64,000 bases of DNA from an uncultured Acidobacteriota bacterium (GCA_963832495.1 CAWHUF010000014.1:279308-343307); one strand, 5' to 3'; shown: positions 1,921 through 19,508, counted from the first letter of the stretch. Notes: generated by a model from the letters alone, not told the origin. Numbers and translations: made by a program.

Positions 1921-1947
1921 AAAAGCCGTTCCGCCGGGGCCGCCGCG

Positions 1948-2055: not shown

Positions 2056-2138
2056 TACCCGCCTCCATTCAGGTCTTTAGGACCCATTAAACAGGGTGCT
2101 CGCCGAGAATCCAGGGGGACAAGCGTTATATATAGACA

Positions 2139-3561
2139 ATGGCCATGCTCAAAGTCCTCATCGTGGAAGATCAGCCCGCGGTCGCGACCGCCCTCCAGGT
2201 CCTGTTCGAGATCCGGGGGATCCCGTGTGTCACCGCCCGCGCGCCCTGGGAAGCCATCCGCGCCCTCGACCAGCAGGCTCAGGAGATCGGCGTCGTGGTC
2301 CAGGACATGAACTTCAGCCCCGAGGCCACCTCCGGTGCCGAGGGGGTGACTCTGTTCCGGGAGATCCGGCGGTGGCACCCGAGCCTGCCCGTGCTGCTGA
2401 TCACGGCCTGGACCTCGCTCGAAACGGCCGTCAAGCTGGTCAAGGAAGGGGCCTCCGACTACCTGGCCAAGCCCTGGGACGACGAGAAGCTCCTGGCCTC
2501 GGTCCGCAACCTCCTGAGGCTGCGGGAGCTGCAGCTCGAAAACGCCCATCTCCGGGGCCGGGCGCGGCGGAGCTGGGAAGACCTCGCCGTCCGGAACGAC
2601 CTTGCAGGCGCCGTGTGGGCGAGCGAGAAGATGCACGCCGTAGTCACTCTTGCTCTGCAGGTGGCCCGGGGGGACATCCCCGTGCTCATCACCGGCCCCA
2701 GCGGCGCGGGCAAGGAGAAGCTGGCGGAGATCGTCCAGGCCAACTCGCGGCGCAAGGACAAGCCCTTCGTCAAGGTCAACGCCGGGGCCTTGCCGGACGA
2801 GCTCCTGGAGAGCGAGCTCTTCGGCGCCGAGGCCGGGGCCTACACCGGGGCCACCCGCCGGCGGGTGGGCCGCTTCGAGGCCGCGGACGGCGGCACGCTG
2901 TTTCTGGACGAGATCGGCAACCTCTCGGCCTCGGGCCAGGCCAAGCTCCTGCGCGTGCTCCAGAGCGGCCAGTTCGAGCGGCTGGGGAGCAGCGAGACCC
3001 GGCGGGTGGACGTGCGCCTGATCTGCGCCACCAATGCCGATCTGAAGCGGGAGATCGCCCTCGGCCGTTTCCGGGAAGATCTCTACTATCGCCTGAACGT
3101 CATCGAGCTTCACCTTCCACCCCTCGCCGAGCGTCCCGAGGACGTGGTCCCCCTCGCCGAAAGGATCCTGCGCGACCTCTCGCCCTCGCCCACGGGAGCC
3201 GTCTGGCGGCTGGACCCGGAGGCCCGAGAGCGGCTGGTCCGCCACCTCTGGCCGGGCAACGTCCGGGAAGCTCGAGAACACCCTGCGCCGGGCCGTCCTG
3301 ATCGCCTCGGGCGACACGATCCGGATCGAGGATCTGGGGCTTGGCGCGGCGACAGTGGCCAAGGCGCCCGCCATCTCCAAAGAGAAGGAGGAGGATGGCA
3401 ACGATCTGCTGCTCGCGGAGCGTGTCCGCATCGAGAGGGCTTTGGAGGACGCCGGGGGTGTCGTGGCCAAGGCGGCCGAAGCCATGGGCCTCTCCCGCCA
3501 GGCCTTCTACCGCAAGCTGGAAAAGCATGGGCTGACCGTCGAGCGCCGGCTGCGGGGGTGA
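2139..3561 (+). CDS. sigma-54-dependent Fis-family response regulator (NtrC-type: REC + AAA+ sigma-54 activator + Fis HTH), interrupted by a 1-nt frameshift near 3265
   Basis: A REC domain (KVLIVEDQPAV ... VVVQDMNF) is followed by the AAA+ sigma-54 activator domain (GPSGAGKE, GAYTGA = GAFTGA motif, WPGNVRE). After cgggaaGctcgag the frame shifts. The +1 frame continues LENTLRRAVLIASGDTIRIEDLGL ... and the C-terminal Fis-type HTH (ORF 3355..3561: MGLSRQAFYRKLEKHGL). The track ORF 2139..4208 runs on out of frame. Confidence 0.85.
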
Positions 3562-3714
3562 CCTTCCCGCCCTGTCCATATCTCACTGTCTCAATAAGAT
3601 TGAACGAACGCTTAAACGGGCGTAACGTCATGGAAGTCCTTAGCGCTTCCAATCGATCTGCCCAAAGGCTTCCCGGGCCAGCCGCGTTGGCGGAGTTGAG
3701 GCGAAGGGAGAGCC

Positions 3715-6700
3715 ATGAGCTTCCAGACGGACGATCTGGCGCTGCTCGCCCTCGGCATCCTGGGCGACAAGCCGCCGGACCCGGACCAGCCTCCACTGCC
3801 GGATGGCGTGCACTGCCGCTGGACCTTTGCCGAGGAGAGGGGCTTCCCCTGGCATGGCTTCTACCTCTTCCGCCGCGAGAGCCGGCCCCGGCGGCCGAAG
3901 TGCCTGAGCCAGGAGACTGGAAGCCTCCGGCCGGGATTGTCGAGGGGCTCCTCCCTCAACACCCGTCTCGGTCGCCTTACCGGCACCCAGCCCCTGCGCT
4001 TCACCGACGACTTCCCCGCCACCGGGGCCGTCGAGATCGACCTCGGAGCCGGGCTCCGTTTCGATCTCTACTCTGGCATCCAGGCCGGGAGGGTCGACGT
4101 CCGGATCGGGTTCCGGGATGCGGGGCCTGCCGTCCAAAGAAAGTGCGTCGACTTCCGCCGGTTCCCTCTCGGCCCTGGTCCCAACCCCCGGACGGAACAG
4201 GACGTTGACTTCGAGACCGAATCCCCGCAGGTGAGCCCACCCCTCTCGATCACATTGATCGAGAGCTGGAACGGCTCCGCCCCGGGTCTCAACACCTCGC
4301 GGAGGCTTCAGGCCACCCTGCCCCGCGAGGCCTCGCGGGTCGACCTGCTCCTCACCAACCGGCACGGGATGGTCATCGAGGCCCTGACTCGGGGAGGAGG
4401 CCGAGTTGCCGTCCGCGAGCTGCGCCCGGGCGAGCTCCAGGCCGGGGTGGTCACGCTGACCGGGACAGGCATTGCCCAGGTGATCCTGCTCGGCTCGTCT
4501 GTGGACGCGGCCCTGCTCCACGAGTTCTGCTTCGAAAGCTCCGGGGAGGTCCCCCGCGAGTCCGCCGTCGAGGTCCGCGCCCTGGCCGGGAAAGAGGTCG
4601 CGGCGCAGACCGTCATCCGGGGGACGGCTGGACAGGTGGTCTCCGCCACGCTCGAACACGAAGGGATCACGGCCGTCGAGATCAACCCCGGCCCGGCGGT
4701 GCTCGTCGACCTCTGCTACTGGCCGAGCGAGCAGGGGGTGACCTTCGGTTGGAGCGAGGTGCCGGGCTTCACCTATCCTCTCTGTCTGCCGGTGGCGGAT
4801 CCGGACTATCCCTGTCCCGGCAAGCCCGTGGACTTCAAGGCGGCCAAGGACCTGGCCCTGTCGCGGGTGACCTACCCCGGCCCGGAGGGATGGGAAGACG
4901 GCTTCGCCGACCTGCACGGCCAGCTCGAAATCCTGGTGAAGGGGGGACCTGGGGGTGGTCCGATGGCGGGGCGCGTCAATCCGGAGCTGCCAGGGGTACC
5001 AATTTCCCCAGCCACCCAGCCCGAGCTGCCCAAGATGCCGGGCCTGCGCCCCCTCGACCTCATCCTCCTGGCGAGCCTCCATCCCACCGTCGCCCAGATG
5101 CTGGGCCTCTACTTCGTGGACCGGTCGGTGGATACGGGTGTGGGCTACGACTACCTCCTCCTTGCCGATCCCACCGGCGTCCTCGGCGGAACCGCTGCCA
5201 GCGCCCTGGATTGGCTGGCCTTCTCAGCCGACGCCTCCCAAGTGGACGCCTACTTGGTCCTCGACCGCAAGGCCGAGCCCCGGCCGCCGATCGCCCCGCC
5301 GGGCGAGGGGCGCGCCTACGCCCTTCCCGGCCCCGCGGCCCGGGCCATCGACGGCTCTCTCCCGGAGGCGGCGGGCCATGTAGGCCTCTGGTGGCCGCTC
5401 CCACCGGACTCGGTCCAGGAACAACCGGACCGGATCGTCTTCTACTACCCGAAGCGGGCTTCCCTCGGCCCGGCCGAGCCGAAGGATCCGCCTGCGGACT
5501 CGGCCTATCAGCCCCTGCCGGACCCTTCGCCGGTCCTCGTCTCCGAGCCCGACCCGCAGGATCCACCGGTTCCCCCCAACCCGCGCAGCTCGGACTGGCC
5601 TCCTCCCTCGATCCCGCTCCACAAGGTGGACAGCAACCTCGCCGAAGGCTGGTACAGCTACCGCTTCGTAGGCCAGGACCTCTTCGGCCGCAGGAGCGCC
5701 CTGGGTCCGCCGTCCCGATGGTTCGAGTGGGATCCGCTGCCGGAGCACCAGCGCCACGCCTTCGCCGTAGCTCTGCACGACAACACTTCTCCCTCCATCC
5801 CTCTGGGAGTCCAAGCCTGGGCCCTCGATCCACTCGATCGCTGGCTGCTCGCGGACAAGCCCTATGAGGATTGGCGGGCTACCGTCTCCAAAGATCTCGT
5901 TGGCCTGCGCGTGCGCTGGCTCTGGACCTACCTCCAGCAGCTCCAGGCGCCGGACACCCACGAGTTCCGTATGTACTACCAGCCCGGCCGCTGGAACGCT
6001 CTCCTAGGAAAGATCGAGAAGGTCGCCGCCGTCTCGGTCTCGGCCGTTCAGAGCGACGTAGACCTCGACTTCGCCAATTTCCACCCCGCCGACGCCTTTG
6101 TTGGTACCCGCCTGCGGGTGGGCAACGACGACTTCGCGGTCCTGGGCAGCCAGCCGGGCACGAACCTCCGCCTGCGGGTGAAAAACATCGGGGTTCACGA
6201 TGAGATCCCTCCCACCGAAGGGAAGCCCTGCACCGTGGCGATTCCGGAGAATCATCCGCTCTGGATCGACACCAGCCTGGCATCGAGTTGGGCGCAACGC
6301 TTGGCCGTCGTTCCCTACGACCCACCGGTGGGGACGGTCTTCGATCCGTCGAAAGACCCCAACGGCCAAGCCCTCACGAGCCACAACGACGCCTTCAAGA
6401 CCGTGCAGGTGATGGTGACCGGGCAGGACGTCCTCTTCGGGGCCGGCCCCGACCTCTCCGGCCTCCAGCCCTGGATCGACCACCTCTGGCTGCGGGCCGG
6501 CACCGCGGAGGAAGCGCACCGCATCGTGCGCTACGACGCCACCGCCCACACCGTGACCCTGGAGGCCGCCCCGGCACTCACCGGTCCGCCCGACGCCTGG
6601 GTCCTCGGCCGGCCAACCCGCGAGTACGAGGTCTTCCTGCCTGCCCTGGACGTGGGGGCCGGGCACCCCTTCGAGCCGAGCCTCGCCGAACCCGCCGTCT

Positions 6701-8232
6701 ACGCCCAGATCGCGGTGAGCGCGGCGGACGACAAGAAGCACGTGGCGGACGATCCGAAGTGGAATGACCCCACCCGCTTCGGCAACGAGAGCCGGCTTTC
6801 CCCATCCGCGACGATCTTCCGTGTCCTCCAGACGCCGCCACAGGCGCCCGACCTGCCGAACTTAGGCGAGCGGCTTGTCGCCACGCCAGCCGACTATAAG
6901 GACAACTCCTACTCAACCTTCCGCTTCAACGACCTCGGACAGCCCTTGAGGGTCCACATCCTGCGCGCCGTGGACGACAGTCTCTTCAAGCGGGATTGGC
7001 TGATCCGGGAGACGCGGAAGGGGCTCGATCCGGCGAACGCGAAGCATGGGGATTTCTTCCCGGACGACCTAGATCTCAGCAAGTGGCCGGCCGGCGCTGC
7101 CGACCTGAACGCCATCACGGCAGACACTGCGTACGTCGGCCTCTCCGACGATGCGTGGTCGGTGCTGGCGCTGCTGCCGGGCAACGAGGGGCAGCCGGAC
7201 CAGCCGAGCCTTGCCGAGCGCGACTGGGCCGTCCGCCACACGCGCGCGAGCCTCTCCGCGGCTGACGCCGATCTCTTCCCCAAGAGTTGGAACCCGACCC
7301 AGATCGCGGACGCGGCCAATGCTCTGAACAATCTTGCTGGTCCTACCGGCTATGCCACGCTGCCTGACAACGCCCTGCGCATCCTCGCCGGCCTCCCCGG
7401 CAACGAGGCCGCCTTCACCCAGGTCACCCTGGCTCCCCTGGAGATGGCGGATCCCAAGATCAAAGACGAGCGTCGGCCGGACGACGATGCGGCGTACGTG
7501 TCCCAATCGATCAACATCCGCGCCTACACCGACACCCTCCCGGGTCGCGCCACCAACCGCTACTTCTATCGCGCGCGTTTCGTGGATGGGGCGCAGAACC
7601 AGAGCTCGCTGAGCCTTGCCGGACCGCCGGTTTATCTCAGGAAGGTGGAGCCGCCGCGGGCACCGGTGATTACGAAGGTGGTTGGTGGGGATCGGCAGAT
7701 TACGATTAGATGGGCTGCGAATCGTGAGCTGGACTTCGCGGAGTACCGCGTGTACCGGACCAGCACCAGAGAGAATGCCGTTGACCCGCGGCTGATGACG
7801 TTGGCCGCGACACGCAGTTCGACAGAACAGGCTTGGGTTGATACAGATTCGCCGCCGGCAGTCACAATGTACTACCGGCTGGCCGCCATAGATGCAACTG
7901 GCAACGTGTCTGCGCCGTCGAGGCCCGCATCAGGGCGTGCTTTCGATGATTCTCACCCTCCTATCCCAGTATGGAAAGCACCGGTCGTCGATGTTGACAG
8001 TAATACAGTTGTCCTGTCCTGGGTGTTCGAATCCTCCAACCTCCAAGCTCTTGTGTCGCGGCGATCATCATCTGAAACCACTTGGGAGAACCTGACGGGA
8101 TGGCTTCCAGCCGGAACAGACACGTTCATGGACCGTGGAGTCGGTATCGGTCTATGGATGTATCGGCTAGTGGTCATGGATCCTAACGGCCGCATCTCGA
8201 AGGCAGAGCAAGACTTGACGGTTGACCTATGA
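3715..8232 (+). CDS. large hypothetical protein (1505 aa) with C-terminal fibronectin type III-like domains; no signal peptide
   Basis: A single long ORF. The C-terminal ~220 aa show two FN3-like modules (PPRAPVITKVVGGDRQITIRWAANRELDFAEYRVYRT ... YYRLAAIDATGNVS ; VVLSWVFES ... YRLVVMDPNGRIS). The rest has no recognisable motifs. It is first in a co-directional, tightly spaced gene set. Confidence 0.65.
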   Translation: MSFQTDDLALLALGILGDKPPDPDQPPLPDGVHCRWTFAEERGFPWHGFYLFRRESRPRRPKCLSQETGSLRPGLSRGSSLNTRLGRLTGTQPLRFTDDFPATGAVEIDLGAGLRFDLYSGIQAGRVDVRIGFRDAGPAVQRKCVDFRRFPLGPGPNPRTEQDVDFETESPQVSPPLSITLIESWNGSAPGLNTSRRLQATLPREASRVDLLLTNRHGMVIEALTRGGGRVAVRELRPGELQAGVVTLTGTGIAQVILLGSSVDAALLHEFCFESSGEVPRESAVEVRALAGKEVAAQTVIRGTAGQVVSATLEHEGITAVEINPGPAVLVDLCYWPSEQGVTFGWSEVPGFTYPLCLPVADPDYPCPGKPVDFKAAKDLALSRVTYPGPEGWEDGFADLHGQLEILVKGGPGGGPMAGRVNPELPGVPISPATQPELPKMPGLRPLDLILLASLHPTVAQMLGLYFVDRSVDTGVGYDYLLLADPTGVLGGTAASALDWLAFSADASQVDAYLVLDRKAEPRPPIAPPGEGRAYALPGPAARAIDGSLPEAAGHVGLWWPLPPDSVQEQPDRIVFYYPKRASLGPAEPKDPPADSAYQPLPDPSPVLVSEPDPQDPPVPPNPRSSDWPPPSIPLHKVDSNLAEGWYSYRFVGQDLFGRRSALGPPSRWFEWDPLPEHQRHAFAVALHDNTSPSIPLGVQAWALDPLDRWLLADKPYEDWRATVSKDLVGLRVRWLWTYLQQLQAPDTHEFRMYYQPGRWNALLGKIEKVAAVSVSAVQSDVDLDFANFHPADAFVGTRLRVGNDDFAVLGSQPGTNLRLRVKNIGVHDEIPPTEGKPCTVAIPENHPLWIDTSLASSWAQRLAVVPYDPPVGTVFDPSKDPNGQALTSHNDAFKTVQVMVTGQDVLFGAGPDLSGLQPWIDHLWLRAGTAEEAHRIVRYDATAHTVTLEAAPALTGPPDAWVLGRPTREYEVFLPALDVGAGHPFEPSLAEPAVYAQIAVSAADDKKHVADDPKWNDPTRFGNESRLSPSATIFRVLQTPPQAPDLPNLGERLVATPADYKDNSYSTFRFNDLGQPLRVHILRAVDDSLFKRDWLIRETRKGLDPANAKHGDFFPDDLDLSKWPAGAADLNAITADTAYVGLSDDAWSVLALLPGNEGQPDQPSLAERDWAVRHTRASLSAADADLFPKSWNPTQIADAANALNNLAGPTGYATLPDNALRILAGLPGNEAAFTQVTLAPLEMADPKIKDERRPDDDAAYVSQSINIRAYTDTLPGRATNRYFYRARFVDGAQNQSSLSLAGPPVYLRKVEPPRAPVITKVVGGDRQITIRWAANRELDFAEYRVYRTSTRENAVDPRLMTLAATRSSTEQAWVDTDSPPAVTMYYRLAAIDATGNVSAPSRPASGRAFDDSHPPIPVWKAPVVDVDSNTVVLSWVFESSNLQALVSRRSSSETTWENLTGWLPAGTDTFMDRGVGIGLWMYRLVVMDPNGRISKAEQDLTVDL

Positions 8233-9169
8233 ACGAGAACACGAACTCATGATTCCAGTTTTCTGTGCCGCGAACGGGCAACTCGACCTGAGCCGCCTAC
8301 GGCTTCAATTCGAAGATAGTTCGGGCAGTAGTTTCCTTTCCGCGATAACGAATGGCATCAATGACTGGGTAGATCCCAATAAGGCTAACCTCGGTATTTC
8401 AATTGTGAACCTCAACCTTTCTAGAGATCCAGTTGCCGGAGAGTATGTTATTTATGTCGGGAATGGGTCGGCCGCAGGAACACGAGCACGTGAGCCGGAG
8501 CGAACATTGAGCATTTCCTACGTAACACCGGAAGGTGGCTATCTGTTCACCACTGAGCCGAATCTGAGGCGAATAGCTTCGCATGAATTCGGTCATTTAC
8601 TCGGCCTAGCTGATCGCTACTATGAGGGCTATCTCCATAAACGGACTGAAGTCGGCACGCGAACCACCGTACCGATGGATAATATCCTCTTTGCAGCAGA
8701 GAGTGGCTATGTTCCTGCTACGAACCTCATGTCCGGTGGTAGCAACGATTGGACCCTGTCAAGCGTTCAGCGTCAGTTGGTCCTATCCTGCAAAGAAGAA
8801 GATCAGAAATCTCGGCGCGTGGTTGGACTTTTCGATGAAACACAGGGTTCGGGTAGTTGGCATTTGCCACTAACGATGTATCTGAGCGGCGGCGCGCTCT
8901 TTACACCTGATCCGCCTCCCCCGGATCTCGCGATCGCAGGTTACACATTGCTCGGTGGTCTCGTCTTTGACTCCAAGGCTCGTGCAACGGCGTTGGGGAA
9001 CATTGAGGTTCGGAAGTTGTGGAATTTGCGTCCACCCCCCTCCGGAACCTTGACTAAGATAACTTGGTTCCATAAAGGAAAAAGGCACAGGCGCAGGCAT
9101 GTGGTCTCTACTGCACCACGAATTCACCGGCAGAGGATGAGACTCATTGCGGCGCTCGCGGGCTCGTAG
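8222..9169 (+). CDS. putative zinc metalloprotease, snapalysin-like (M7-like HExxHxxGxxD)
   Basis: It carries the motif HEFGHLLGLADRYYEGY, with Asp as third ligand, and a downstream NLMSGGSN segment reminiscent of snapalysin (HETGHVLGLPDHY ... LMSGGG). It overlaps the stop of the upstream gene by 11 nt. It lies in a locally AT-shifted segment. Confidence 0.55.
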   Translation: MTYEREHELMIPVFCAANGQLDLSRLRLQFEDSSGSSFLSAITNGINDWVDPNKANLGISIVNLNLSRDPVAGEYVIYVGNGSAAGTRAREPERTLSISYVTPEGGYLFTTEPNLRRIASHEFGHLLGLADRYYEGYLHKRTEVGTRTTVPMDNILFAAESGYVPATNLMSGGSNDWTLSSVQRQLVLSCKEEDQKSRRVVGLFDETQGSGSWHLPLTMYLSGGALFTPDPPPPDLAIAGYTLLGGLVFDSKARATALGNIEVRKLWNLRPPPSGTLTKITWFHKGKRHRRRHVVSTAPRIHRQRMRLIAALAGS

Positions 9170-9184
9170 AGATCGCGATGTTCG

Positions 9185-12100
9185 ATGGAAAAACGCATGG
9201 AAGAAACCAAGCCGATTCAAGATCTATGGTTGTCACTGGCGGACGTTCTACCCGAGGGCTGGCGGAGCGGTGGCGCCGCTGTCATACTTGAAGATTTGTC
9301 CTTTGTTGACGCTCTATTATCTTCGGAGGGAGATGATAGATTTACCCTTGCAATAACAATTGGATCGGATACCCCGCTCGATCTGGAGATCCCCGGACTA
9401 CCAGATCTCGGGATAACGGTCGGCGAATTCGACAACTTCGGTTATACGCTAGAGTTGGAGTACGCGGCGGGCGTTTTGTCTGCCAGTGTCGTTGACGTAC
9501 CTATCACCATCTATTTGCCTGACTCATTTCTTCGGCCGGTGGATGATGAAGACGGACTCGGCTTGATCGGTCAGGGAGTTTTTCGGATTTCCTCTCGCGG
9601 GGAGATTCAGATTCAACTCGTCGATGGCCTCAATTTGCCGTCTTGTTATCTGGGTGATTCAGGTATTATAATTTCGGCTTCGAACCTCGACGTAGATTTG
9701 TCCGTCGTCAGTAGTCCTCCGGAGGTGCTGGCGGCGGGCTTTGACGAATCCTTCATCGGCTTGTACTTCCAAGAAGTACGCATTACGCTACCGGCAGGTT
9801 TTCCGAGTCTTGCCCCGGAAGACCTCGTTCTGAAGAAATGTGTCATTGGATCGGGTGGTGTGAGCGGAGAACTCGATCTCACGTATACCCCGAAGTATGA
9901 TGCAGCGTCTAAAACGTTCAGCGGGCCAGGTGCCGGAGATCTGTTCGGGATTTCGTTTGGCCTCGAGCATGTACAGGTCATGCTTCGAAAGAATGCGCTG
10001 ACGAAGTCGAGCTTTATAGGGAAACTGTTGCTTCCGTTCTTTGAAGAGCCCGTAGAAGTTGATGTCGGCTTCGATCTCGATGGCAATGTGACCGTAGAAA
10101 TTACTGGCAGCGGCGCGGGAGGGTTGAAGACCATTACGAAGCCAAACGTAATGAGTATAGAGCTAGACTCCATCGGTGCGGAGTTGGATGATGGCCTCTT
10201 TGCGGTCAAAATCGCCGGTAAGCTCACCCCTCTTTTCGGCGGCCTAGATTGGCCTACCTTCGACGTCAAGGAGCTGTCGATCGACTCCAAGGGCCACGTC
10301 CACCTGGACGGCGGCTGGTTAAATGTCCCCGAGCAGAAGACTCTCGACTTTTACGGCTTCAAGATCGAAATCTCCCAGCTCGGCTTCGGCAAGAACGACG
10401 ATGGCAGCAAGTGGATCGGATTCTCGGGCGGCTTGAAACTCGTCGAGGGCCTCCAAGCCGGGGCGTCGGTCGAGGGGCTACAGATCACTTGGCGCGAGGA
10501 TGGGAGCCTTCCCAGGATCACCCTGAACGGTGCTGGCGTCGAGCTTTCGATTCCTGGAGTCCTCCACCTCAAGGGAGAGGTCTCCTACAAGGAGCTCGAG
10601 ATCGACGGGGAGACGATCCGCCGCTTCGACGGCGGCATCCATCTCTCCTTGGAGACCCCGGAGCTCGAGATTGACGGCACCTTGGTCATCGGCTCGGTCA
10701 AGGGGCCGCAGGGCCGGTACAACTTCTTCGCCATCTACGTCGACGTCGATCTGCCCACCGGCATCCCGCTCGCCAGCACAGGGCTCGGGATCTACGCCTT
10801 CGCCGGTCTCTTCGCGCTTCAGATGGAGCCCAACAAGCGCCCGGACGAGATGTGGTTCAGCATCGATCACTCGAAGAGCTTCTACCACCGCGACACTCCG
10901 GGCATCACCGATCTCAAGAAAAAGTGGGATCCGAGAAAAGGGAGCTTCGCTGTCGGCGCGGGGATCACTCTCGCCACGCTCTCGGACAATGGCACCACCT
11001 TCAATGGCCAATTCCTGCTCGCCCTCGTCACCCCGGGGCCGATCGCGCTCATTCAGGGGGCCGCCTCGTTCCTGAAGAAGCGGGCGGACGGGAAGGACGA
11101 GGGGCAGTTCCGCGCTCTCACCGTGATCGATGGCCGGGCGGGCAGCATTTTGATCGGCATCGACGCCGAGTACAAGACCGGCAGGGGCGGAGAGATGATC
11201 GAGATCGGCGGCAGCATGGAGGCGTTCTATGCCTTCCATGATCCCACCGCCTGGCGCCTCTACCTGGGGAAGAACGAGCCGCGCGAGTTGCGCATCCGGG
11301 CCCTCCTCGGCCGCTTCGTCGAGGCCAACGCCTACTTCATGCTGGACGCCCACCAACTCGCCCTGGGCGCCTGGTTCGGCTACAACAACGGCTGGAGCTT
11401 CGGTCCCTTGAGCATCCGGCTGGAGGCCTGGGCGGACGGCAACGCGCTCCTCAGCTTCAAGCCCAGCCATTTCCATGGCGATCTCTGGCTCCATGCCCTG
11501 GTGGAGCTCAAGGTCTTCGGGCTCGGGTTGGGCCTCTCCTTGGACGCCAAGATCGCGGCCGACCTGTTCAGGCCCTATCACCTGCGCGGCGAGTTCAGCG
11601 TCGGGATCAAGCTCCCCTGGCCGTTCAAGAAGAAGATCGGGGCCACGGTGGTGCTGGAGTGGGGGCCGCGGCCGGACGCTCCGCCGTTGCCCCTGCCGGT
11701 GGCGGACGTCGCGGTCGAGCACCGCAAGAGTACGGTGGTTTGGCCGCTGAACCGGGGCAGGTACCTGCTGCCGAGCTACGACGACGGCGGTGGCTTCCTT
11801 GCCCAGAGTGGACCCCATCTCCAGCCCGATCTGTCGAAGCTGCCGCGGGTGCCGGTGGACGGCCGGATCTCGGTCACCTTCGGCCGCTCGGTCCACGACG
11901 TGTCGATGGTGGGGAGCAACGTGCAGCCGGTCGATCCTACGAAGGAGCGGATCGGCAACCCTGGCGGCCCGGCGGTGGTGGAGGTCAAGTACTCCCTGAC
12001 GCGCACCGCCCTGGAGAGTTGGGACGGTCAGGGGTGGCAGACCGTAGCGGCCAGCCCGAAGACGGGGATCACGCCATCCCTATATGGAATGTGGGTGCCG

Positions 12101-15100
12101 GCACCTCAGCTCCCGGCAGGGAACGCCAATCCCCCGAAGCCGGCCCAGACCAAGCTGCTGCTGTGGTCCAAGAATCCGTTCGACTTCATACGTCGTACAG
12201 GCTCATCGTGGGAGGAGTGGGTGACGGACGGGATGCCGGACTACCCTTGCATTCCGCCGCTTCCGGCCCAGGAGATCTGTTTCGATTTCGCGGACCTGGC
12301 TCCGGGCACGGTCATCCAGTCCCCCTGGATCCATCCCGGACCTCCCGTGTTCACCCTGTCCTGGGGGTTCGGCCCGGCGACGGTGCAGGAGCGCCTCGTG
12401 CCGGTCCCCGGGGCTGTGCGGAAGGTGAAAACCCTCTGCTTCCCCGTGGCCGCGGCCCGGAATGGAGTGCAGATCCATTCGGACCAGCCAGGCCGGTCGT
12501 TCCGTATCGTCCTGGCCCAGGGGGAAGTTGCGCAGCCGGTCCCTACTGCTTCCGGGGTCGCGGTGGCACCTATTTTCACGACTATCGACGATATTCCTGT
12601 GTGTATTGACTTCCGGAGGTGGACGGTCGGCACGCAGGTAAACCCGTGGGTGGAGGAGGGCGTTCGCTTCGAGGTCCGCGGAGCAGATGGCGGGCTCCTG
12701 CCCGTGGCCCGGGTCGAGCGGTGGGGCTCGGGTCTTCCGGGCCTGGGCGCCGGCTTCCGGCTCGACGTTGCCCTGCCTTGCCCCTCCCCATGGGTGGAGT
12801 TGGTAGTCACCCATCGTCCCCCCTTCCGGATCGTGGCCTTTGACGCCAAGGGCGTGGCAGTGGCCACCCATGCACCAGGAGGAACGAGCGGTGAGGTGAC
12901 TGAAACAATCCGCTTGGAGGGGCCGGCCATCACCCGGGTTGAGGTGCACGCGGCGGGCAACGAGAAGCTGGTCCACCGGGTCTGTTACACCTGTCCACGG
13001 CCGAAGGTGCCCTGGGCCACCGGCTTGGGTGCAGATGGTGAGGTCTTCGGACCGTTCTTCCCGGTCGGTGGCGATATTGAGATCCCGGGGGAGGACATGC
13101 CCGAGGTGGTGGTGACGAACGACGGGCCTCTTTGTCTGGAGCGGATCTGCGTCACACCGGACCCGGAGACCGGCCAGGAGGTGCGGCGGAAGGAGGCGAT
13201 CGAGCACATCCGTGAGGAGTTGGCCCGCTGGCGGCAGGAAGGGGCGGTGCTGGCCCCCCACACGGCTTACAGGCTGGTGATCGAGACCTCCGTCGCGCCC
13301 CAGGCCTTGGTGAGCCTGAACAACTTCCCTCCATCGAGCCTTGACCTCACGCCGGTCGAGTACGCCTACTTCCGGACCTCCGGCCCGCCCGGGCTGGGGG
13401 TTCTCGATCCACCGGAAGGCCTGTCGCCATCCACGGTCTTCTCGACCGGGCTCGACGACCTCACCCGGTATGTGCGGGAGACGACGCCGCCCACGGTGCC
13501 GCCGCCGGGAGAAAAACCGATTCTCTTCAAGCCGTTCTATCGTGCCTATGACATCGGGGTGGAATTCAACGAGGACTACGTCGAGCAGATGTACCGCATG
13601 GACCGGCGGGACCTCGGGCTCTATCTCTACGACAACAACAACCAGCCGGTTCGAGATGCGGAGGGGCGGCTCCTGGTCCTCGGCAACCGGTGGGGGAGGG
13701 CGGAGACGCTCAGCCTCTCCGAACGGGACACCCGCTGGGTCACGCTGATCGACGCCGCCACCTGCCTGCCGAAGAAGCTCGATCCCAAGACCTTCCCGCG
13801 CGACAGCACGCTGGTGTCTTCGGAGCCGGGCCGGGTTCTCGCCGCGGACACTCTCTACGAGCCGCGCCTGGTCCCCATGCTTCTTCACGAGGCCTTCTCA
13901 GGTTCTTCCCTGGGCGCTGTTCCTCCCGGCTGGTATCGAGAGGACTCGGGGCCGGGCGGGCCGTCGGACTGGAAGGTGGGGGAGGCGGGGGAGCCTCCGA
14001 GCCGGTTCGTGGAGCAGCTCTCGACGATCGGCGGCGCCGGGCCGGATCGGCCGGGCACGCTGCTGCTCCTGGCCGAGTCCTCGGCTTGGACGGACTACCG
14101 GGTGAGCGTCTACGTCGGCTCGGCGGCGGGCGGGGCCGTGGGCGTGGTGGTGCGCCACCAGGGGCCGGGCACGGGCTACCGGTTCTCCCTCGATGGCCGG
14201 GTCCGGCGGCTGGTCAAGGGGGATGCCACTCTCCTGGGTGAGGATCATTTCGCGTACCGGAGGAACCGGGACTATCTCGTGACGTTCGAAGCCCTGGGCT
14301 CCTCGCTCAAGGTCTATCTGGACGGCGAGCCCGTGTTCGAGGTGACGGACGAGGACTTCAAGACCGGCCGGATCGGCCTCTACGTGTGCCAGAGCCCGGG
14401 CGCGCGGTTCAGCGACGTGCGGGTGGACGACTTCCGCGCCGAGGCGCCGGTGGTCTACCGGTTCCAGCTCACCACGTCCCTGTTCGCCAACTTCTTCCAT
14501 CACCTCCACAGCTTCCAGGACGAGACCTGGCGGGCCGAGCTCGAGGAAGATCCCGGGGGCCTGCTGAAGGAAGCGGTGGAGCTTTCGCTCTCGCCTCCCG
14601 ACGAGAAGGAGGCTCGGGCTTACGAGGCGCTGGCGAAGAGCGCACTGCAATCCGCTGCGCTCCAGAACCCGCGGCAGGTGGAGGTCACCCGCCTGGAGTG
14701 GGAGAGCCAGCCCGTGGCCTTCCTGCTGCGTAGCCCCGAGCCCCTGGCCTGGGACCGCGTCTCCATGGCCTTCTTTATCGGGCCTGTCCGCGACCTGCCC
14801 GCGGAGCCGCCCGGCGCGGTGAAGCTCGTGGAGGCGTCCTTCGGGACCCTGCCGGGCGACGAGTCCGTCACGCTGCTTCTGCGCGAGGCGGTGGACCTCT
14901 CCCGGTGGCGGATCGAGCTGCGCCTCCCTTCCGGTCCCCTGCCGGAGCCGGAGGGGGATCCCGTGATGCTCCTCGAGAGGTTCCAAGGCGATCCCCAGGC
15001 TGTGCTGGACCGCTTCACCGTGGCCGATATGGGAACGGAGAACGGTCCCTCCGACTGGCGAGTCGAGGGCGGAGCGCTGATCCAGGTCTCGGAGATCCAC

Positions 15101-16555
15101 GGCGGCGCCGAGCCGGAGCTGCCGGGTACGGTGGCGGTGACGGGCGATGCGGACTGGACGGACTACCGGCTCGCCGTGGACCTGCGGTCGGACTCGGGCA
15201 GCGGCCTGGGGATCGTGTTCCGCTGGGTAGACGGCGACAATCACTACCGTCTCTCCCTCGACGCCGGGCTCAAGTACCGGCGGCTGGTCAAGCGCGAGAA
15301 GGGGGTGGTCTCCATCCTCTGGGAGGAGGAGAAGGGGTACGCGGCGGGCGAGCCGCTCCGGCTGACGGTCGAGGCCGTGGGCTCCCGGCTGACGGGCTTT
15401 CTGGGAAGCGACCGGCTGTTCGAGGTCACAGACGCCGCCCACGCCGCCGGCCGGGTAGGGCTGTACGCCTCCGGCAATCCGGACGCCCGCTTCGAGAAGA
15501 TCGAGGTGCGCCAGCCGTCCCTCGACGTCTATGCCCTGGTCCGCGACCGGTTCGCCGCGGGGGACCTTACCGGCTGGCTGCGGACCGACGAGGCCGCGGC
15601 GCCGCAGCCTTCGACCCTGGAGGCCGTTGGCGGAGCGTTGATCCTGCGCAGCTTCGTCCAGGAAGAGGACGGCGGGACCTTCCCCGGCAGCTACGCCTTC
15701 ATCGGTCCGCCGTTCAAGGACGCCGTCTGCAGCGCCAGACTGCTGTGCCATTTCGGCGGGGCGATCGGGATGGTCGTCCGCGGCCAGGATTTGAACAACT
15801 ACTACCGCTTCTCCATGGACGCCCAGAGGGGCTACCGGCGGCTGGTCAAGAAGGTGAAGGGCCAGACCACCGTGCTCTGGGAGGACGGCGTCGCCTACAC
15901 GCCGGGCCAGGTCTACGAGCTGACCGTGGCGGCCGTGGGCACCTCGCTCCGGGGCTATCTCGACGGCATTCCCTTGTTTTCCGTGGAGGATGGGGACGTC
16001 TCCGCCGGCGTCATCGCCCTCTATGCCTGGAACAATCCTGAGGCCTTATTCTCCCAGGTGCGGGTCTTCCCTGCGGACCGCGCCGTCGAATCCTCTCCGG
16101 AGCCGCGGTGGACGACCTGGTACGCCTTCGGTGGCGAGGAACGGCTGCCGGCGGGCACCCGGCTCCGGATCTCCGCCGGACCCGAGGCGGGAGCGCCCCC
16201 TGCGGAGCCAGGGACCGAGCGCCGCTTCGCCGCTCCCCTGGGAGAGACGGGCCGCGCGCGTTTCCCCGCCACGGAAGCGGAGTTGCGGGTGGTGGGGCCG
16301 GAAGGGCCCGGGCATACCCGGACCCTCCTGCCCTATTCGGACTATGTGATCCTGCCTCCGCCCCGGGTGTTGCGCCGGGCAGATGGCACCGGGCTCGTGG
16401 TGGTCCCCTCTGGCGGCTCGCCTCTGGGGGAGGCGTGGTACCAGTTGAGCTTCACCTACGACCGGAAGAGGGGGGAGGAGGTCCATCCCTTCAGCCAGGC
16501 AGGAGACCAGAACCCGGAGAGGGTCACAATCGACATCCCCTGGAAGGCGCGCTAG
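9185..16555 (+). CDS. giant hypothetical protein (2456 aa) with three tandem LamG/DUF1080-like (concanavalin-like jelly-roll) modules near the C-terminus
   Basis: A single 7.4-kb ORF. It has three ~190-aa repeats sharing WTDYR / GxG(V/I)V(V/F)R ... YR(F/L)S(L/M)D ... RRLVK ... LxGED ... Y ... VxxxGxxLxxYLDG ... F ... D ... GR(I/V)GLY ... RF..V(R/E)V. An unrecognised N-terminal ~1500 aa precedes them. There is no signal peptide. It ends 12 nt before the histidine kinase gene. Confidence 0.65.
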   Translation: MEKRMEETKPIQDLWLSLADVLPEGWRSGGAAVILEDLSFVDALLSSEGDDRFTLAITIGSDTPLDLEIPGLPDLGITVGEFDNFGYTLELEYAAGVLSASVVDVPITIYLPDSFLRPVDDEDGLGLIGQGVFRISSRGEIQIQLVDGLNLPSCYLGDSGIIISASNLDVDLSVVSSPPEVLAAGFDESFIGLYFQEVRITLPAGFPSLAPEDLVLKKCVIGSGGVSGELDLTYTPKYDAASKTFSGPGAGDLFGISFGLEHVQVMLRKNALTKSSFIGKLLLPFFEEPVEVDVGFDLDGNVTVEITGSGAGGLKTITKPNVMSIELDSIGAELDDGLFAVKIAGKLTPLFGGLDWPTFDVKELSIDSKGHVHLDGGWLNVPEQKTLDFYGFKIEISQLGFGKNDDGSKWIGFSGGLKLVEGLQAGASVEGLQITWREDGSLPRITLNGAGVELSIPGVLHLKGEVSYKELEIDGETIRRFDGGIHLSLETPELEIDGTLVIGSVKGPQGRYNFFAIYVDVDLPTGIPLASTGLGIYAFAGLFALQMEPNKRPDEMWFSIDHSKSFYHRDTPGITDLKKKWDPRKGSFAVGAGITLATLSDNGTTFNGQFLLALVTPGPIALIQGAASFLKKRADGKDEGQFRALTVIDGRAGSILIGIDAEYKTGRGGEMIEIGGSMEAFYAFHDPTAWRLYLGKNEPRELRIRALLGRFVEANAYFMLDAHQLALGAWFGYNNGWSFGPLSIRLEAWADGNALLSFKPSHFHGDLWLHALVELKVFGLGLGLSLDAKIAADLFRPYHLRGEFSVGIKLPWPFKKKIGATVVLEWGPRPDAPPLPLPVADVAVEHRKSTVVWPLNRGRYLLPSYDDGGGFLAQSGPHLQPDLSKLPRVPVDGRISVTFGRSVHDVSMVGSNVQPVDPTKERIGNPGGPAVVEVKYSLTRTALESWDGQGWQTVAASPKTGITPSLYGMWVPAPQLPAGNANPPKPAQTKLLLWSKNPFDFIRRTGSSWEEWVTDGMPDYPCIPPLPAQEICFDFADLAPGTVIQSPWIHPGPPVFTLSWGFGPATVQERLVPVPGAVRKVKTLCFPVAAARNGVQIHSDQPGRSFRIVLAQGEVAQPVPTASGVAVAPIFTTIDDIPVCIDFRRWTVGTQVNPWVEEGVRFEVRGADGGLLPVARVERWGSGLPGLGAGFRLDVALPCPSPWVELVVTHRPPFRIVAFDAKGVAVATHAPGGTSGEVTETIRLEGPAITRVEVHAAGNEKLVHRVCYTCPRPKVPWATGLGADGEVFGPFFPVGGDIEIPGEDMPEVVVTNDGPLCLERICVTPDPETGQEVRRKEAIEHIREELARWRQEGAVLAPHTAYRLVIETSVAPQALVSLNNFPPSSLDLTPVEYAYFRTSGPPGLGVLDPPEGLSPSTVFSTGLDDLTRYVRETTPPTVPPPGEKPILFKPFYRAYDIGVEFNEDYVEQMYRMDRRDLGLYLYDNNNQPVRDAEGRLLVLGNRWGRAETLSLSERDTRWVTLIDAATCLPKKLDPKTFPRDSTLVSSEPGRVLAADTLYEPRLVPMLLHEAFSGSSLGAVPPGWYREDSGPGGPSDWKVGEAGEPPSRFVEQLSTIGGAGPDRPGTLLLLAESSAWTDYRVSVYVGSAAGGAVGVVVRHQGPGTGYRFSLDGRVRRLVKGDATLLGEDHFAYRRNRDYLVTFEALGSSLKVYLDGEPVFEVTDEDFKTGRIGLYVCQSPGARFSDVRVDDFRAEAPVVYRFQLTTSLFANFFHHLHSFQDETWRAELEEDPGGLLKEAVELSLSPPDEKEARAYEALAKSALQSAALQNPRQVEVTRLEWESQPVAFLLRSPEPLAWDRVSMAFFIGPVRDLPAEPPGAVKLVEASFGTLPGDESVTLLLREAVDLSRWRIELRLPSGPLPEPEGDPVMLLERFQGDPQAVLDRFTVADMGTENGPSDWRVEGGALIQVSEIHGGAEPELPGTVAVTGDADWTDYRLAVDLRSDSGSGLGIVFRWVDGDNHYRLSLDAGLKYRRLVKREKGVVSILWEEEKGYAAGEPLRLTVEAVGSRLTGFLGSDRLFEVTDAAHAAGRVGLYASGNPDARFEKIEVRQPSLDVYALVRDRFAAGDLTGWLRTDEAAAPQPSTLEAVGGALILRSFVQEEDGGTFPGSYAFIGPPFKDAVCSARLLCHFGGAIGMVVRGQDLNNYYRFSMDAQRGYRRLVKKVKGQTTVLWEDGVAYTPGQVYELTVAAVGTSLRGYLDGIPLFSVEDGDVSAGVIALYAWNNPEALFSQVRVFPADRAVESSPEPRWTTWYAFGGEERLPAGTRLRISAGPEAGAPPAEPGTERRFAAPLGETGRARFPATEAELRVVGPEGPGHTRTLLPYSDYVILPPPRVLRRADGTGLVVVPSGGSPLGEAWYQLSFTYDRKRGEEVHPFSQAGDQNPERVTIDIPWKAR

Positions 16556-16567
16556 CCTTCCCGGCGG

Positions 16568-17881
16568 ATGAAACCCCTCCGTCTCGCCACCCGCGTCCGC
16601 CTGGCCTTCGTCGCGGCCCTGGTGCCCGTGATCGGCTTCGCCATGGCGGCGGCGTACTGGTTCCCATCCCCCTGGACCGTCTTCGCCGCCGCCGTCTGTT
16701 TCGGCCTGCCGGCGGGATGGTGGATCCTCGACCGGGTCCTCCTCCCCGCGACCCGGGTCCTCCAGGCCCTGCGCGACGGCGTCCAGGGCTACCGCGACCA
16801 CGATTTCAGCCTGAACCTGGCGGTCGACCGCAAGGACGAGCTGGGAGATCTTGTGGACCTCTACAACAACGTAGGCGACGTGCTGCGGGAGGAGAGGAAC
16901 GCCATCCTCCAGCGCGAGATGCTGCTCGAGACGGTCTTCGAAGCGACCCCCATGGCGATCGTCCTCACCAACGAGCGTGACCGCGTGATCTTCGCCAACC
17001 GCACGGCGCGCGAGGTCTTCTTCACCCGGGGGCGGCTCGAAGGGCGGGTGTTCGGCCAGCTCCTGGAGGAATGCCCCGACGGGCTGCGCGAGGCGCTCTC
17101 CGGCGGGCGCGACGCGCTGTTCTCCCTGGAGAGCGGGGGCGAGGAGGAGGTCTACCACGTGTCCCGCCGGACCTTCGAGCTCAACAGCCGGCGGCACGAC
17201 CTGACGCTCATCAAGCGGCTCACCCCGGAGCTGCGGCGCCAGGAGGTGGACGTCTGGAAGCGGGCCATCCGCACCCTCTCGCACGAGATCAACAACTCGC
17301 TCGCCCCCATCGCCTCGCTCGCCCGCTCCGTGCGCGTCATGGCCGAGAACCCCGAGCACCGCGGCCGTATCGGCTCGGCCCTCGACGTCATCGAGGAGCG
17401 CTCCACTCATTTGAAAGATTTTTTGGAAGGCTATGCCCGTTTCGCCCGCCTCCCTCAGCCCAACAAGCGAGAGGTGGAATGGAAAGGTTTTCTCACGGAG
17501 CTCCAACAGGTCGTCCCCTTCGAGTTGGAAGGAGAGCCGCCCTCCGCTCCAGGATGTTTCGACCCGGCCCAGATGCAGCAGGCCCTGATCAATCTCCTGA
17601 AGAACGCCCATGAGTCCGGGAGCCCGCCCGGGGAGGTGAAACTGGCCGTGGACGCCCTGGGCGACGGTGGCGTCCGCTTCCGTATTCTGGACCGTGGAGC
17701 CGGCATGACCGAGGAGGTGATGAGGAAAGCGCTCCTGCCGTTCTACACCTCGAAGCCGGGCGGCTCCGGGCTGGGCCTGCCGCTCTGCCGGGAGATCGTC
17801 GAGGCCCACGGCGGCCGGCTGCGCATCGAGCGCCGGGAGGGCGGAGGGACGGCAGTGGTGTGCTGGGTGCCGGGGAGGTGA
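16568..17881 (+). CDS. sensor histidine kinase, NtrB-like (2 TM, PAS-like, HisKA, HATPase_c)
   Basis: TM helices (LAFVAALVPVIGFAMAAAYWF ; VFAAAVCFGLPAGWWIL) are followed by the H-box LSHEINNSLAPI and an ATPase region (INLLKNAHES ... DRGAGMT ... GGSGLGL). It is the likely partner of the sigma-54 regulator at 2139. Confidence 0.8.
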   Translation: MKPLRLATRVRLAFVAALVPVIGFAMAAAYWFPSPWTVFAAAVCFGLPAGWWILDRVLLPATRVLQALRDGVQGYRDHDFSLNLAVDRKDELGDLVDLYNNVGDVLREERNAILQREMLLETVFEATPMAIVLTNERDRVIFANRTAREVFFTRGRLEGRVFGQLLEECPDGLREALSGGRDALFSLESGGEEEVYHVSRRTFELNSRRHDLTLIKRLTPELRRQEVDVWKRAIRTLSHEINNSLAPIASLARSVRVMAENPEHRGRIGSALDVIEERSTHLKDFLEGYARFARLPQPNKREVEWKGFLTELQQVVPFELEGEPPSAPGCFDPAQMQQALINLLKNAHESGSPPGEVKLAVDALGDGGVRFRILDRGAGMTEEVMRKALLPFYTSKPGGSGLGLPLCREIVEAHGGRLRIERREGGGTAVVCWVPGR

Positions 17882-17943: not shown

Positions 17944-18273
17944 TCAAGGAATCGGCGGGCCGCAGTCAACTCGGCAGCCGTAGGTGGCCGAGCCGTCCAC
18001 CACCCACATGCTGCCCGACGCGTAGCAGGGGGGGAGGGTGAAGGCGCAGACCAGCGTAGCGCCGCCACAGTCAGCCTGAGCTTCGGGCAGTCTGGCCGCC
18101 CGGAACTGTGCCTGGGCGTCCGCGCACGTGGCCGCCATCTTCCAGTCAGGCGAGGTGCTGTAGCCACCGTCGTCGCAGCACAGGATGGCGTGGGCCGGTT
18201 CCGGCGTCGAGAACGCCGCGGTACAGGCGAGCACGGCGACCAACAGCACTCCCAACAGAGTCAACCTCTTCAT
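17944..18273 (-). CDS. small secreted cysteine-rich protein, paralogue 1 of 6 (Sec signal peptide + 8-Cys mature domain)
   Basis: It encodes MKRLTLLGVLLVAVLACTAAFSTPEPAHA|ILCCDDGGY ... C ... C ... C ... C ... C ... C. AAAGGAG lies 9 nt upstream. It shares a conserved 5' leader with the other paralogues. Confidence 0.8.
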   Translation of the reverse strand: MKRLTLLGVLLVAVLACTAAFSTPEPAHAILCCDDGGYSTSPDWKMAATCADAQAQFRAARLPEAQADCGGATLVCAFTLPPCYASGSMWVVDGSATYGCRVDCGPPIP

Positions 18274-18435
18274 AATCTCGTTCTCCTTTCGGAAAGGGAC
18301 TTCATACGCTACTCAATGTGCGTACCAGGGGTAAATGCGAGCCCTGCGGGCGTGATATCCTGGTCATCTTCGTTGGAGTGACGCATGAACCGGGAGGCCC
18401 ATCCCGGTAAGCGGTGGGCCTTCCGGGCCAGAGTG

Positions 18436-19486: not shown

Positions 19487-19508
19487 TTGAGTTCAGCTCG
19501 GGCGCGGT

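Follow-up and report, generated by a model that had tools for sequence, protein, structure and literature searches.

What kind of system is formed by two giant proteins that have no evident export signal and whose genes enclose a single small enzyme gene? The question is raised by a stretch of 64,000 nucleotides (nt) from an uncultured Acidobacteriota bacterium (GCA_963832495.1, CAWHUF010000014.1:279308-343307), here called the window, which is GC-rich (G+C fraction about 0.68). In a preliminary description of positions 2139-17881, a sigma-54 activator and an NtrB-type kinase were seen to flank an operon of two giant proteins, here named gpA and gpB, and a snapalysin-like protease. Comparison with related loci leads to another delimitation: the unit consists of gpA, an exchangeable enzyme and gpB, and it is not a sigma-54 operon. 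This three-gene cassette may encode a delivery complex for toxins or hydrolases.

Layout of the locus

The four co-directional open reading frames of the preliminary description were all recovered on the plus strand. gpA (3715-8232) encodes 1505 amino acids (aa) and gpB (9185-16555) encodes 2456 aa; the middle gene, for a putative Zn metalloprotease, lies between them, and a sensor histidine kinase gene follows gpB. The middle gene begins either with an ATG at 8249 (8249-9169, 306 aa) or with a TTG at 8222 (315 aa), the former agreeing better with the starts of its homologues. The spacing is as tight as first reported: depending on the start, gpA and the middle gene overlap by 11 nt (TTG) or are separated by 16 nt (ATG), and gaps of 15 nt and 12 nt precede gpB and the kinase gene, respectively. 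No N-terminal hydrophobic segment or transmembrane-like stretch was found in gpA, gpB or the middle protein by a hydropathy check, which agrees, within the reach of such a check, with the earlier statement that the giant proteins lack signal peptides. The closest relatives of the locus occur in metagenome-assembled genomes (MAGs) of Thermoanaerobaculia and other Acidobacteriota.

A widely distributed three-gene cassette

A genome scan for gpB, in which each species was represented by one genome, gave 50 loci. Of the 41 loci with sufficient sequence upstream of gpB, 39 have gpA directly upstream by tblastn, with one gene, rarely two, in between. The triad is also present in the independently fetched loci L001-L005 and L056-L058, so that the co-occurrence of the three genes in other genomes, which had been proposed as a check on the original prediction, is borne out. 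Carriers of the cassette include Acidobacteriota, Chloroflexota (among them Nitrolancea hollandica), Bacteroidota, Paenibacillus mendelii (Bacillota), Gemmatimonadota, Nitrospirales, a deltaproteobacterium and Actinomycetota (Gordonia rhizosphera, Solirubrobacterales, Acidimicrobiia). The alphaproteobacterial carriers are Microvirga, Rhizobium, Roseovarius, Allosphingosinicella and the amoeba endosymbiont Ca. Paracaedibacter symbiosus. gpA and gpB are thus conserved partners across about ten phyla. Together with the enzyme gene they are shown by this distribution to be a conserved unit, which has evidently been spread horizontally. At least two cassettes with different enzymes (L020, L026) are present in one Blastocatellaceae MAG.

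The cassette does not travel with a fixed set of neighbours. An all-against-all comparison of 4 kb on each side of the loci gave no conserved flanking genes, and only local synteny among close Thermoanaerobaculia was seen.

Encapsulin-like (Linocin_M18) genes adjoin the cassette in two of about 60 loci, which are distant from each other. In L057 such a gene (7478-8578) lies just upstream of gpA; in the protein P0118, an encapsulin-like part (residues 2630-2982) is fused to, or read through from, a normal gpB C-terminus. The two parts are mutually homologous (25% identity, E 1e-18).

The middle gene as an enzyme slot

Thirteen clusters, none related to another, were obtained from the 40 middle proteins, and the comparison shows the middle gene to be a polymorphic slot for predicted enzymes between the conserved gpA and gpB. 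A phospholipase D (PLD) occupies the slot in 13 loci (Pfam PLDc/PLDc_2); among solved structures it is nearest to human PLD1/2 and plant PLD-alpha (E 1.6e-14), not to nucleases. In L047 the enzyme is an amidase of the PGRP/T7-lysozyme type (Amidase_2, E 1.5e-14; PDB, E 1e-13), in L021 the middle protein has right-handed beta-helix/PMP repeats (Pfam), and that of L008 is trypsin-like, with a GDSGAV motif and a weak Nal1_C match. Further HExxH proteins were recognized by sequence in L037, L054 and L055. Cluster 2 has SGNH-hydrolase motifs in five of its seven loci, with invariant GDS, GGND and DxxH blocks; it gave no Pfam or PDB match and its profile search was empty. Cluster 3 (five loci) is lytic-transglycosylase-like, with a weak SltB match around the catalytic Glu, and cluster 5 (three loci) is papain/NlpC-like, with conserved Cys and His motifs only and an empty profile search. 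These SGNH, transglycosylase and papain assignments rest on motifs, because profile searches gave nothing beyond the SltB match at E 0.06.

The middle protein of the window carries HEFGHLLGLAD at aa 121-131 (DNA 8582-8614), and it had been described as an M7-like, or snapalysin-like, protease. At the level of the motif this description stands: as in snapalysin (MEROPS M7), HExxHxxGxxD, with the Asp as presumed third zinc ligand, is followed by Y. At the level of the family it does not, the NCBIfam snapalysin model scoring 16.4 bits against a cut-off of 300 and PDB entry 1C7K matching with E 0.8 over 27 aa (4HX3, also among the best matches, is likewise not significant). The matches to M10, M43, M6 and snapalysin are all motif-level and below cut-offs. 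In addition, the window protein has about 306 aa and no signal peptide, whereas snapalysin is secreted and has about 130 aa. Homologous middle genes occur only in L001/L011, L007 (partial), L017 and L048. As judged from this comparison, the system is not defined by the snapalysin-like protease, which is one among many cargoes that replace each other.

Iterated searches with hidden Markov models revealed an N-terminal domain of about 200 aa that is shared by 16-18 middle proteins and may be regarded as an adaptor. It is marked by the motifs RF[MI]xG...V.AG..[LI]G and HPL, and the proteins that bear it have six different C-terminal types. In L047 it forms a separate small protein ahead of the amidase. 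When the adaptor alignment was searched against a large protein database only four matches were obtained, a number probably limited by the word-index filter.

En-bloc exchange of the enzyme module

The exchange of enzymes extends beyond the enzyme gene. In the window, positions 7800-10300 of the plus strand form a module with a G+C fraction of 0.50-0.58, against 0.65-0.69 on both sides, which comprises the protease gene together with the C-terminal ~140-150 aa of gpA and the N-terminal ~340-370 aa of gpB. This cargo module looks recently imported from a donor of lower G+C content. The module was then compared among relatives that share 70-78% identity with the window in the gpB core (aa 371-1030). 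Those with the same protease (L001, L007, L017) share 56-83% identity over gpB aa 1-340 and 49-60% over gpA aa 1351-1505, while for those with another enzyme (L008, L010, L013, L015, L023, L024, L050) the values are 29-37% and 28-39%, respectively. Among all locus pairs with a core identity >0.65, the mean identity of the gpB N-terminus is 0.52 for pairs of the same enzyme type and 0.33 for pairs of different types. In 27 of 29 loci the G+C fraction of the central module is lower than that of both cores; the difference averages 0.066 and reaches 0.18.

In these comparisons the cargo gene and the flanking ~150 aa and ~340 aa act like a single recombining unit that is often imported. The flanking segments of gpA and gpB would then be cargo-specific docking regions.

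The two giant proteins

The 101 homologues of gpA are unnamed or 'hypothetical', save for one 'FN3 domain-containing' protein. Their N-terminus is conserved (MxxQTxxLxxxxLGxxGDxPP...DGIHLRW) and is not a signal peptide. A Pfam scan of gpA gave no match. Of the two FN3 modules that had been ascribed to its C-terminal end, the first (aa 1309-1412; 7639-7950, plus strand) is supported by matches to FN3-containing models, namely PHROG 31, the central tail fiber J (E 5e-7), and NF045522 (E 2.5e-5); the second rests on a weak CbhB match (E 1e-3). An AlphaFold2 model of aa 1-1200 (mean predicted local distance difference test, pLDDT, 86; predicted template modelling score, pTM, 0.61) consists of many beta-sandwich domains, with a helical stretch at aa 1088-1200. 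When this model was compared with the PDB by Foldseek, Ig/FN3 strings, beta-galactosidase, Vip3 and a carbohydrate-binding module (CBM) were returned, as were the tail tips of lambda, T1 and E1004. In BFVD, siphophage 'tip attachment protein J' and minor tail proteins ranked at the top (E 2e-9 to 1e-6, probability <=0.96). The template modelling scores (TM-scores) are about 0.1, and the resemblance is therefore at the level of domains at best. Over the whole gpA chain the matches are low-scoring ones among multi-sandwich proteins, and the likeness to phage gpJ is retained as a weak rival explanation.

For gpB, 346 homologues of 1900-3600 aa were found, all 'hypothetical' where named. A HMMER search with aa 1-1060, which covered 1.84 billion cluster representatives at 50% identity, gave 1,323 relatives of the N-terminal region, 699 of them at E<=1e-30. 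Dense invariant columns mark a conserved region, predicted to be all-beta, at aa ~370-1030 (10295-12274, plus strand). Within it, aa 737-842 (11393-11710, plus strand) match Pfam DUF6603 (PF20248; E 4.8e-8, 32.5 bits against a cut-off of 27), the match covering only positions 353-447 of the 502 in the model. PF20248 has no described function, and a literature search found no paper on it; nor was a paper found on a polymorphic toxin with DUF1080/LamG or on giant Thermoanaerobaculia proteins. The AlphaFold2 model of gpB aa 1-1060 (pLDDT 64, pTM 0.36) is a continuous meander of long amphipathic beta-hairpins. Its Foldseek matches in the PDB were LptD, usher barrels, SlpA and the ApoB100 belt at TM-scores of about 0.1; a Tc or RHS shell was absent from them. 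Homology to LptD, ushers or ApoB100 was rejected, as such matches at this score are generic to antiparallel sheets.

The three LamG/DUF1080-type jelly-roll modules reported for gpB were recovered on the plus strand, and they are CBM66-like. The first is at aa 1590-1747 (13952-14425; internal phmmer, E 3.8e-27), the second at aa 1941-2112 (15005-15520; Pfam 3keto-disac_hyd, E 1.7e-9) and the third at aa 2140-2294 (15602-16066; internal phmmer, E 1.9e-28). The score against 3keto-disac_hyd/DUF1080 (PF06439) is 38.4 bits, with a cut-off of 26.8. The LamG profile matches the CBM66 of levanase (4AZZ/4B1L, E 2e-10), which was all that PDB sequence and profile searches with gpA and gpB returned. DUF1080 is thus taken here as a repeated binding-type module nearest to CBM66 and not as a demonstrated hydrolase.

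The two giants also have a domain in common. The beta-sandwich domain at aa 144-273 of gpA (4144-4533, plus strand) is homologous to aa 1140-1268 of gpB (12602-12988, plus strand), with 32% identity over 133 aa (BLASTP, E 9e-11), and cross-matches between gpA and gpB genes recur in many loci. The domain is bounded by cysteines, and a PDYPC motif stands just before or after it in both proteins.

Comparison with known systems

Tc (ABC) toxins are released independently of classical secretion. Like the cassette as interpreted here, they combine two very large carriers without signal peptides with a variable toxic enzyme, carry receptor-binding domains on the largest subunit, are spread horizontally and have no immunity gene (10.1101/590430; PMC7861908; PMC6868009). 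The parts are nevertheless different. The cassette has no VRP1, TcdA/TcdB pore, neuraminidase-like, SpvB or RHS/YD homology (Pfam, NCBIfam) and no fold match. Its cargo is encoded by a separate gene rather than by the C-terminal region of TcC, and its cargoes are predicted to be envelope-degrading hydrolases rather than cytosolic modifiers; its core is predicted to be all-beta, whereas the shell and channel of Tc toxins are alpha-helical.

In binary AB toxins, such as anthrax protective antigen (PA) with LF/EF, the enzymatic components dock onto a common component by a homologous N-terminal adaptor, and the PA-type binding/translocation component forms a beta-barrel. PA-type B components, however, are Sec-secreted, oligomeric proteins of about 80 kDa, unlike the two giant partners of the cassette; no homology was detected, and some cassette cargoes have no adaptor.

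The periplasm-acting effectors of type VI secretion systems (T6SS) include Tle5 PLD phospholipases, Tae amidases and Tge muramidases. The repertoire resembles that of the cassette, with eukaryote-like PLD, lipase/esterase, murein amidase, glycosidase-like enzymes and proteases (PMC11470151; 10.1101/2023.03.28.534661). The cassette has no T6SS genes and no PAAR, VgrG or MIX-type markers, and while antibacterial T6SS effectors invariably have an adjacent immunity gene, the cassette has none (10.1101/2023.03.28.534661). Sheath, tube, baseplate and spike genes were found neither around the window cassette nor in the flanks of about 45 related loci, and no secretion-system genes were found among the open reading frames scanned in the window.

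The umbrella particles of Streptomyces (UmbA/B/C) are multi-protein antibacterial particles of soil competition, and in this respect the cassette, as interpreted here, would be comparable to them (PMC11062931; PMC13274773). In umbrella toxins, diversified lectin domains choose the target and a polymorphic toxin domain does the damage (PMC11062931; PMC13274773). The proteins are unrelated, and no Umb-type ALF repeats or coiled-coil stalk were detected in the cassette. The umbrella toxin is the C-terminus of UmbC, acts inside the target cell and belongs to secreted particles. The lectin modules of the cassette are fused in tandem within gpB, unlike those of umbrella particles. Siphophage protein J is a further likeness, as a long beta-sandwich/FN3 string that heads the Foldseek matches of gpA and is represented by PHROG 31; the cassette differs from it in the TM-score of about 0.1, in having no homology to it outside FN3 and in its non-phage context.

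The absence of a match to Tc, RHS, extracellular contractile injection systems (eCIS) or T6SS, which had been noticed at the outset, was upheld by Pfam, NCBIfam, PADLOC and PHROGs. In the manner of polymorphic toxins, a conserved putative delivery part is combined with unrelated exchangeable enzymes (13 clusters, and an adaptor with six C-terminal types); a cognate immunity gene next to the toxin, typical of that class, was not found. The cassette is rated as new as a system, with a putative function that is read from comparative genomics, because it fails membership in Tc, in eCIS/T6SS/tailocins and in PADLOC systems, and because DUF6603 and DUF1080 have no such described role.

Proposed function

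Since a conserved delivery part, exchangeable enzymes and a common adaptor form the pattern of polymorphic toxins, the favoured explanation is that the cassette specifies a new kind of self-contained complex for delivering toxins or hydrolases, to which we assign a probability of about 0.5. The original suspicion of a toxin/effector locus of no nameable type is strengthened by the conservation of the cassette and by the swapping of enzymes. Domains of extracellular type, namely LamG/CBM66, TSP_C, FN3 and Ig-like sandwiches, are present in the cassette proteins. The agreement of the enzyme set with that of periplasm-acting T6SS effectors, the two differently equipped cassettes of one MAG and the signs of mobility given by transposases beside the Gordonia and L057 copies also speak for this explanation.

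We infer every step of the mechanism proposed here from observations at the level of genes. gpA and gpB would form a carrier or translocation complex, and the variable ends of both, together with the adaptor where present, would dock the cargo enzyme. The C-terminal LamG/CBM66-type lectin array of gpB may bind glycans on the surface of the target cell and so select the target. The conserved beta-meander of gpB would serve as a shell or pore, by which the enzyme could reach the target envelope, that is, membrane lipids, peptidoglycan or envelope proteins. Release would occur by lysis or by an unknown route, as with Tc toxins, because signal peptides and secretion genes are missing. An envelope-active enzyme would be harmless to the producer as long as it stays cytoplasmic or held by its carrier; the producer may be protected in this way, which would explain why an immunity gene is missing. 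A more specific and tentative version holds that gpA and gpB constitute a new translocation toxin, independent of secretion systems, that follows the logic of ABC toxins with unrelated parts. The beta-meander of gpB would then make up a giant barrel or shell from a single chain; the lectins would guide it to the target envelope, where it would insert and pass in the docked, exchangeable enzyme, be it a protease, PLD, lipase or murein hydrolase.

Several observations weigh against a delivery complex. No signal peptide, transmembrane segment or export signal was found in gpA, gpB or the enzyme in any phylum, diderm or monoderm. Immunity, lysis or secretion genes conserved beside the cassette were not found either, and there is no room for an immunity gene between the middle gene and gpB. 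Neither giant has a sequence or fold match to a known translocator (Foldseek TM-scores of about 0.1), and the 'barrel or shell' of gpB is speculative because of the low confidence of its model. The window protease and the short PLD forms have no adaptor domain. Lastly, the en-bloc co-variation of the cargo with the ends of the giants could merely reflect the positions of recombination breakpoints.

The main rival to the delivery complex, though an unlikely one, is anti-phage abortive infection, in which gpA and gpB would be cytoplasmic sensors or scaffolds and the middle gene would encode an exchangeable suicide effector, such as a phospholipase, protease or lipase, activated on infection. Known defence systems likewise have interchangeable effectors and have spread widely by horizontal transfer, and they too lack immunity genes and signal peptides. 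The PLD cargo gave weak PADLOC matches to DrmC and MkoB; MNT/HEPN pairs, Ku and HTH genes occur in the vicinity of the L001 copy, and transposases border the copies of Gordonia and L057. Most cassette neighbourhoods, however, consist of housekeeping genes and are not defence islands. PADLOC-DB 2.0 gave no match for gpA or gpB, and no ATPase, nuclease or nucleotide-sensing domain was found in them with Pfam and NCBIfam. The PLD cargo resembles true phospholipases, as described above, and an unexported cargo resembling a peptidoglycan amidase or transglycosylase makes little sense in the cytoplasm, where the typically extracellular lectin, FN3 and TSP_C domains would also be out of place.

Somewhat less probable still is a non-toxic complex for scavenging or adhesion, extracellular or on the cell surface, in which lectin-bearing giants would hold a hydrolase on necromass, cell walls or membranes in the service of nutrition or cell-wall remodelling. 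Such a complex would need no immunity gene, CBM66-like LamG arrays and strings of beta-sandwiches are typical of polysaccharide-binding enzymes, and the carriers are mostly soil and sediment bacteria. Against this, no glycoside-hydrolase catalytic domain was detected in gpA or gpB by Pfam, NCBIfam and PDB searches, and signal peptides, the C-terminal domain of the type IX secretion system (T9SS) and anchor motifs are lacking, also in the copies of Bacteroidota and Bacillota. Identity as an ordinary glycoside hydrolase or adhesin with a known export route, by which the first interpretation could have fallen, did not appear. The rapid en-bloc replacement of cargo and the presence of several cassettes in one genome are signatures of conflict systems, and a copy in an obligate amoeba endosymbiont (L021) also fits poorly with scavenging.

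A domesticated phage tail-tip is improbable. gpA would correspond to a gpJ-like tip or central fibre, the middle gene to a tail lysin and gpB to a giant fibre or receptor-binding protein, and the three proteins would act as a minimal tailocin-like killer. This is consistent with the Foldseek matches of gpA to tip attachment protein J in BFVD and to the lambda, T1 and E1004 tips in the PDB, and with the PHROG 31 match of its FN3 module; virion-associated lysins, moreover, include amidases, transglycosylases and lipases. The TM-scores of about 0.1 may, however, reflect mere strings of Ig/FN3-like sandwiches. A search of 2.9 million viral contigs gave no relatives of the cassette, the cassette flanks inspected hold no genes for a tube, tape measure, baseplate or capsid, and gpB has no PHROG match.

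If the cassette is indeed a delivery complex, a machine without earlier description is very widely distributed, its relatives forming about 1,300 clusters at 50% identity and coming from about ten phyla. Thermoanaerobaculia, other Acidobacteriota and Chloroflexota, whose competition biology is almost unknown, would gain a new means of antagonism between cells (or, under the rival of abortive infection, a new defence architecture). On the narrower reading as a translocation toxin, soil Acidobacteriota, Chloroflexota, Actinomycetota and others would possess in it a major weapon that has so far gone unseen. Thousands of 'hypothetical' proteins of 1,500-3,000 aa and Pfam DUF6603 would gain a functional context. 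The swapping of cargo en bloc with the adjacent ends of the giants leads to a precise hypothesis on the docking surfaces, and a naturally modular scaffold for cargo exchange could be of use in engineering. Release and self-protection are a mechanistic puzzle, given that signal peptides and immunity genes are missing. Cultured carriers include Paenibacillus, Gordonia, Nitrolancea and Microvirga.

The two-component genes and the sigma-54 question

The NtrC-type activator gene (2139-3561, plus strand; response-regulator (REC), sigma-54 AAA+ and HTH domains) lies upstream of gpA, and the kinase gene (16568-17881, plus strand; 437 aa) lies downstream of gpB. The domain assignment of the activator was confirmed by Pfam (Sigma54_activat, E 9e-67; Response_reg, E 7e-20; AAA lid), but the gene is not a single open reading frame as had been assumed. 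After ...WPGNVRE the frame shifts, and the remainder (LENTLRRAV...HTH...stop at 3561) is in the +1 frame. The cause is a 1-nt insertion, a single extra A near 3269, where the window reads GGGAAGCTC and L017 and L023 read GGG-AGCTG. The gene is thus either a pseudogene or affected by a homopolymer error of the assembly. Intact orthologues, with 81-84% identity, occur only in L017, L023 and L008.

The kinase was identified correctly as a histidine kinase with HAMP, PAS, HisKA (weak) and HATPase_c domains in Pfam, and it is a membrane sensor. The label 'NtrB-type' is loose, the best NCBIfam model being AtoS (E 2.5e-27, below cut-off) and the protein having N-terminal hydrophobic segments as well as HAMP. 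Orthologues of the kinase occur only in L017, L023, L007 and L008. The activator and kinase genes flank the cassette in the arrangement of the window in L017, L023 and L007, whereas in L008 (DASVEF010000312.1) they are adjacent to each other (930-3712) with the cassette downstream. The position of the cassette between the pair in some loci and after it in L008 suggests an insertion into, or a rearrangement of, a two-component operon. Both genes are absent from about 35 other loci, including L001, whose gpB is 67% identical, and all other phyla.

A sigma-54 promoter, which was to be sought upstream of 3715 by a GG-N10-GC scan, was not found. The intergenic region between the activator gene and gpA (3562-3714, plus strand) contains a TTGAC-like element and no -24/-12 consensus; no TGGCAC-N5-TTGC site with up to two mismatches is present on its plus strand. 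In an alignment of this region with L017 and L023, a block containing TTGAC is conserved and a GG-N10-GC is not. Throughout the window the -24/-12 pattern has 48 matches, below the mean of 54.7 in shuffled sequences. An extra insert of about 110 bp is present in the corresponding region of L023 (2318-2450); it resembles a repetitive extragenic palindrome or a miniature inverted-repeat transposable element and has the long inverted repeat GGTGCGCTGTGCGCACC...GGTGCGCACAGCGCACC.

It is thus very improbable that activator, giants, protease and cognate kinase are integral parts of one sigma-54-dependent operon: an AAA+ enhancer-binding protein is present, and the pair flanks the cassette with gaps of 12-150 nt in the window and in the same way in three relatives, but that protein is frameshifted, the promoter is missing, and the linkage is confined to four related loci in two arrangements. 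On this comparison, the activator and kinase are lineage-specific neighbours and not part of the conserved cassette, which they may regulate in this clade.

Other features of the window

Downstream of the kinase gene, on the minus strand, six tandem paralogues of about 110 aa each, with 50-68% mutual identity, occupy 17944-20843. They have a signal-peptide-like N-terminus (MKRxxLLGxLLVAVLACTAALSTP..HA) and a Cys-rich mature part (CCDNGGY...CGG..VC..IPPCY...GC..C), and gave no Pfam match. They may encode secreted peptides or bacteriocin-like products, or be precursor genes. That they form an immunity array for the cassette was rejected, since no other cassette locus has them.

A large M36 (fungalysin-type) metalloprotease with a proprotein-convertase P-domain and DUF11 repeats (21953-25750, minus strand) is unrelated to the cassette. 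On the plus strand, the window also encodes a MacB/FtsX-type permease (12-1478), a BON-domain protein (20846-21553), a TPR-Ser/Thr kinase (31158-33782) and a hybrid histidine kinase with 4HB_MCP, GAF, two REC and Hpt domains (54246-57833). A protein of 971 aa with HD-CE (E 6e-43) and HATPase_c_3 domains (37346-40261, minus strand) sits in the second low-GC island of the window (G+C fraction 0.53 against ~0.68), a pattern typical of horizontally acquired conflict or defence genes.

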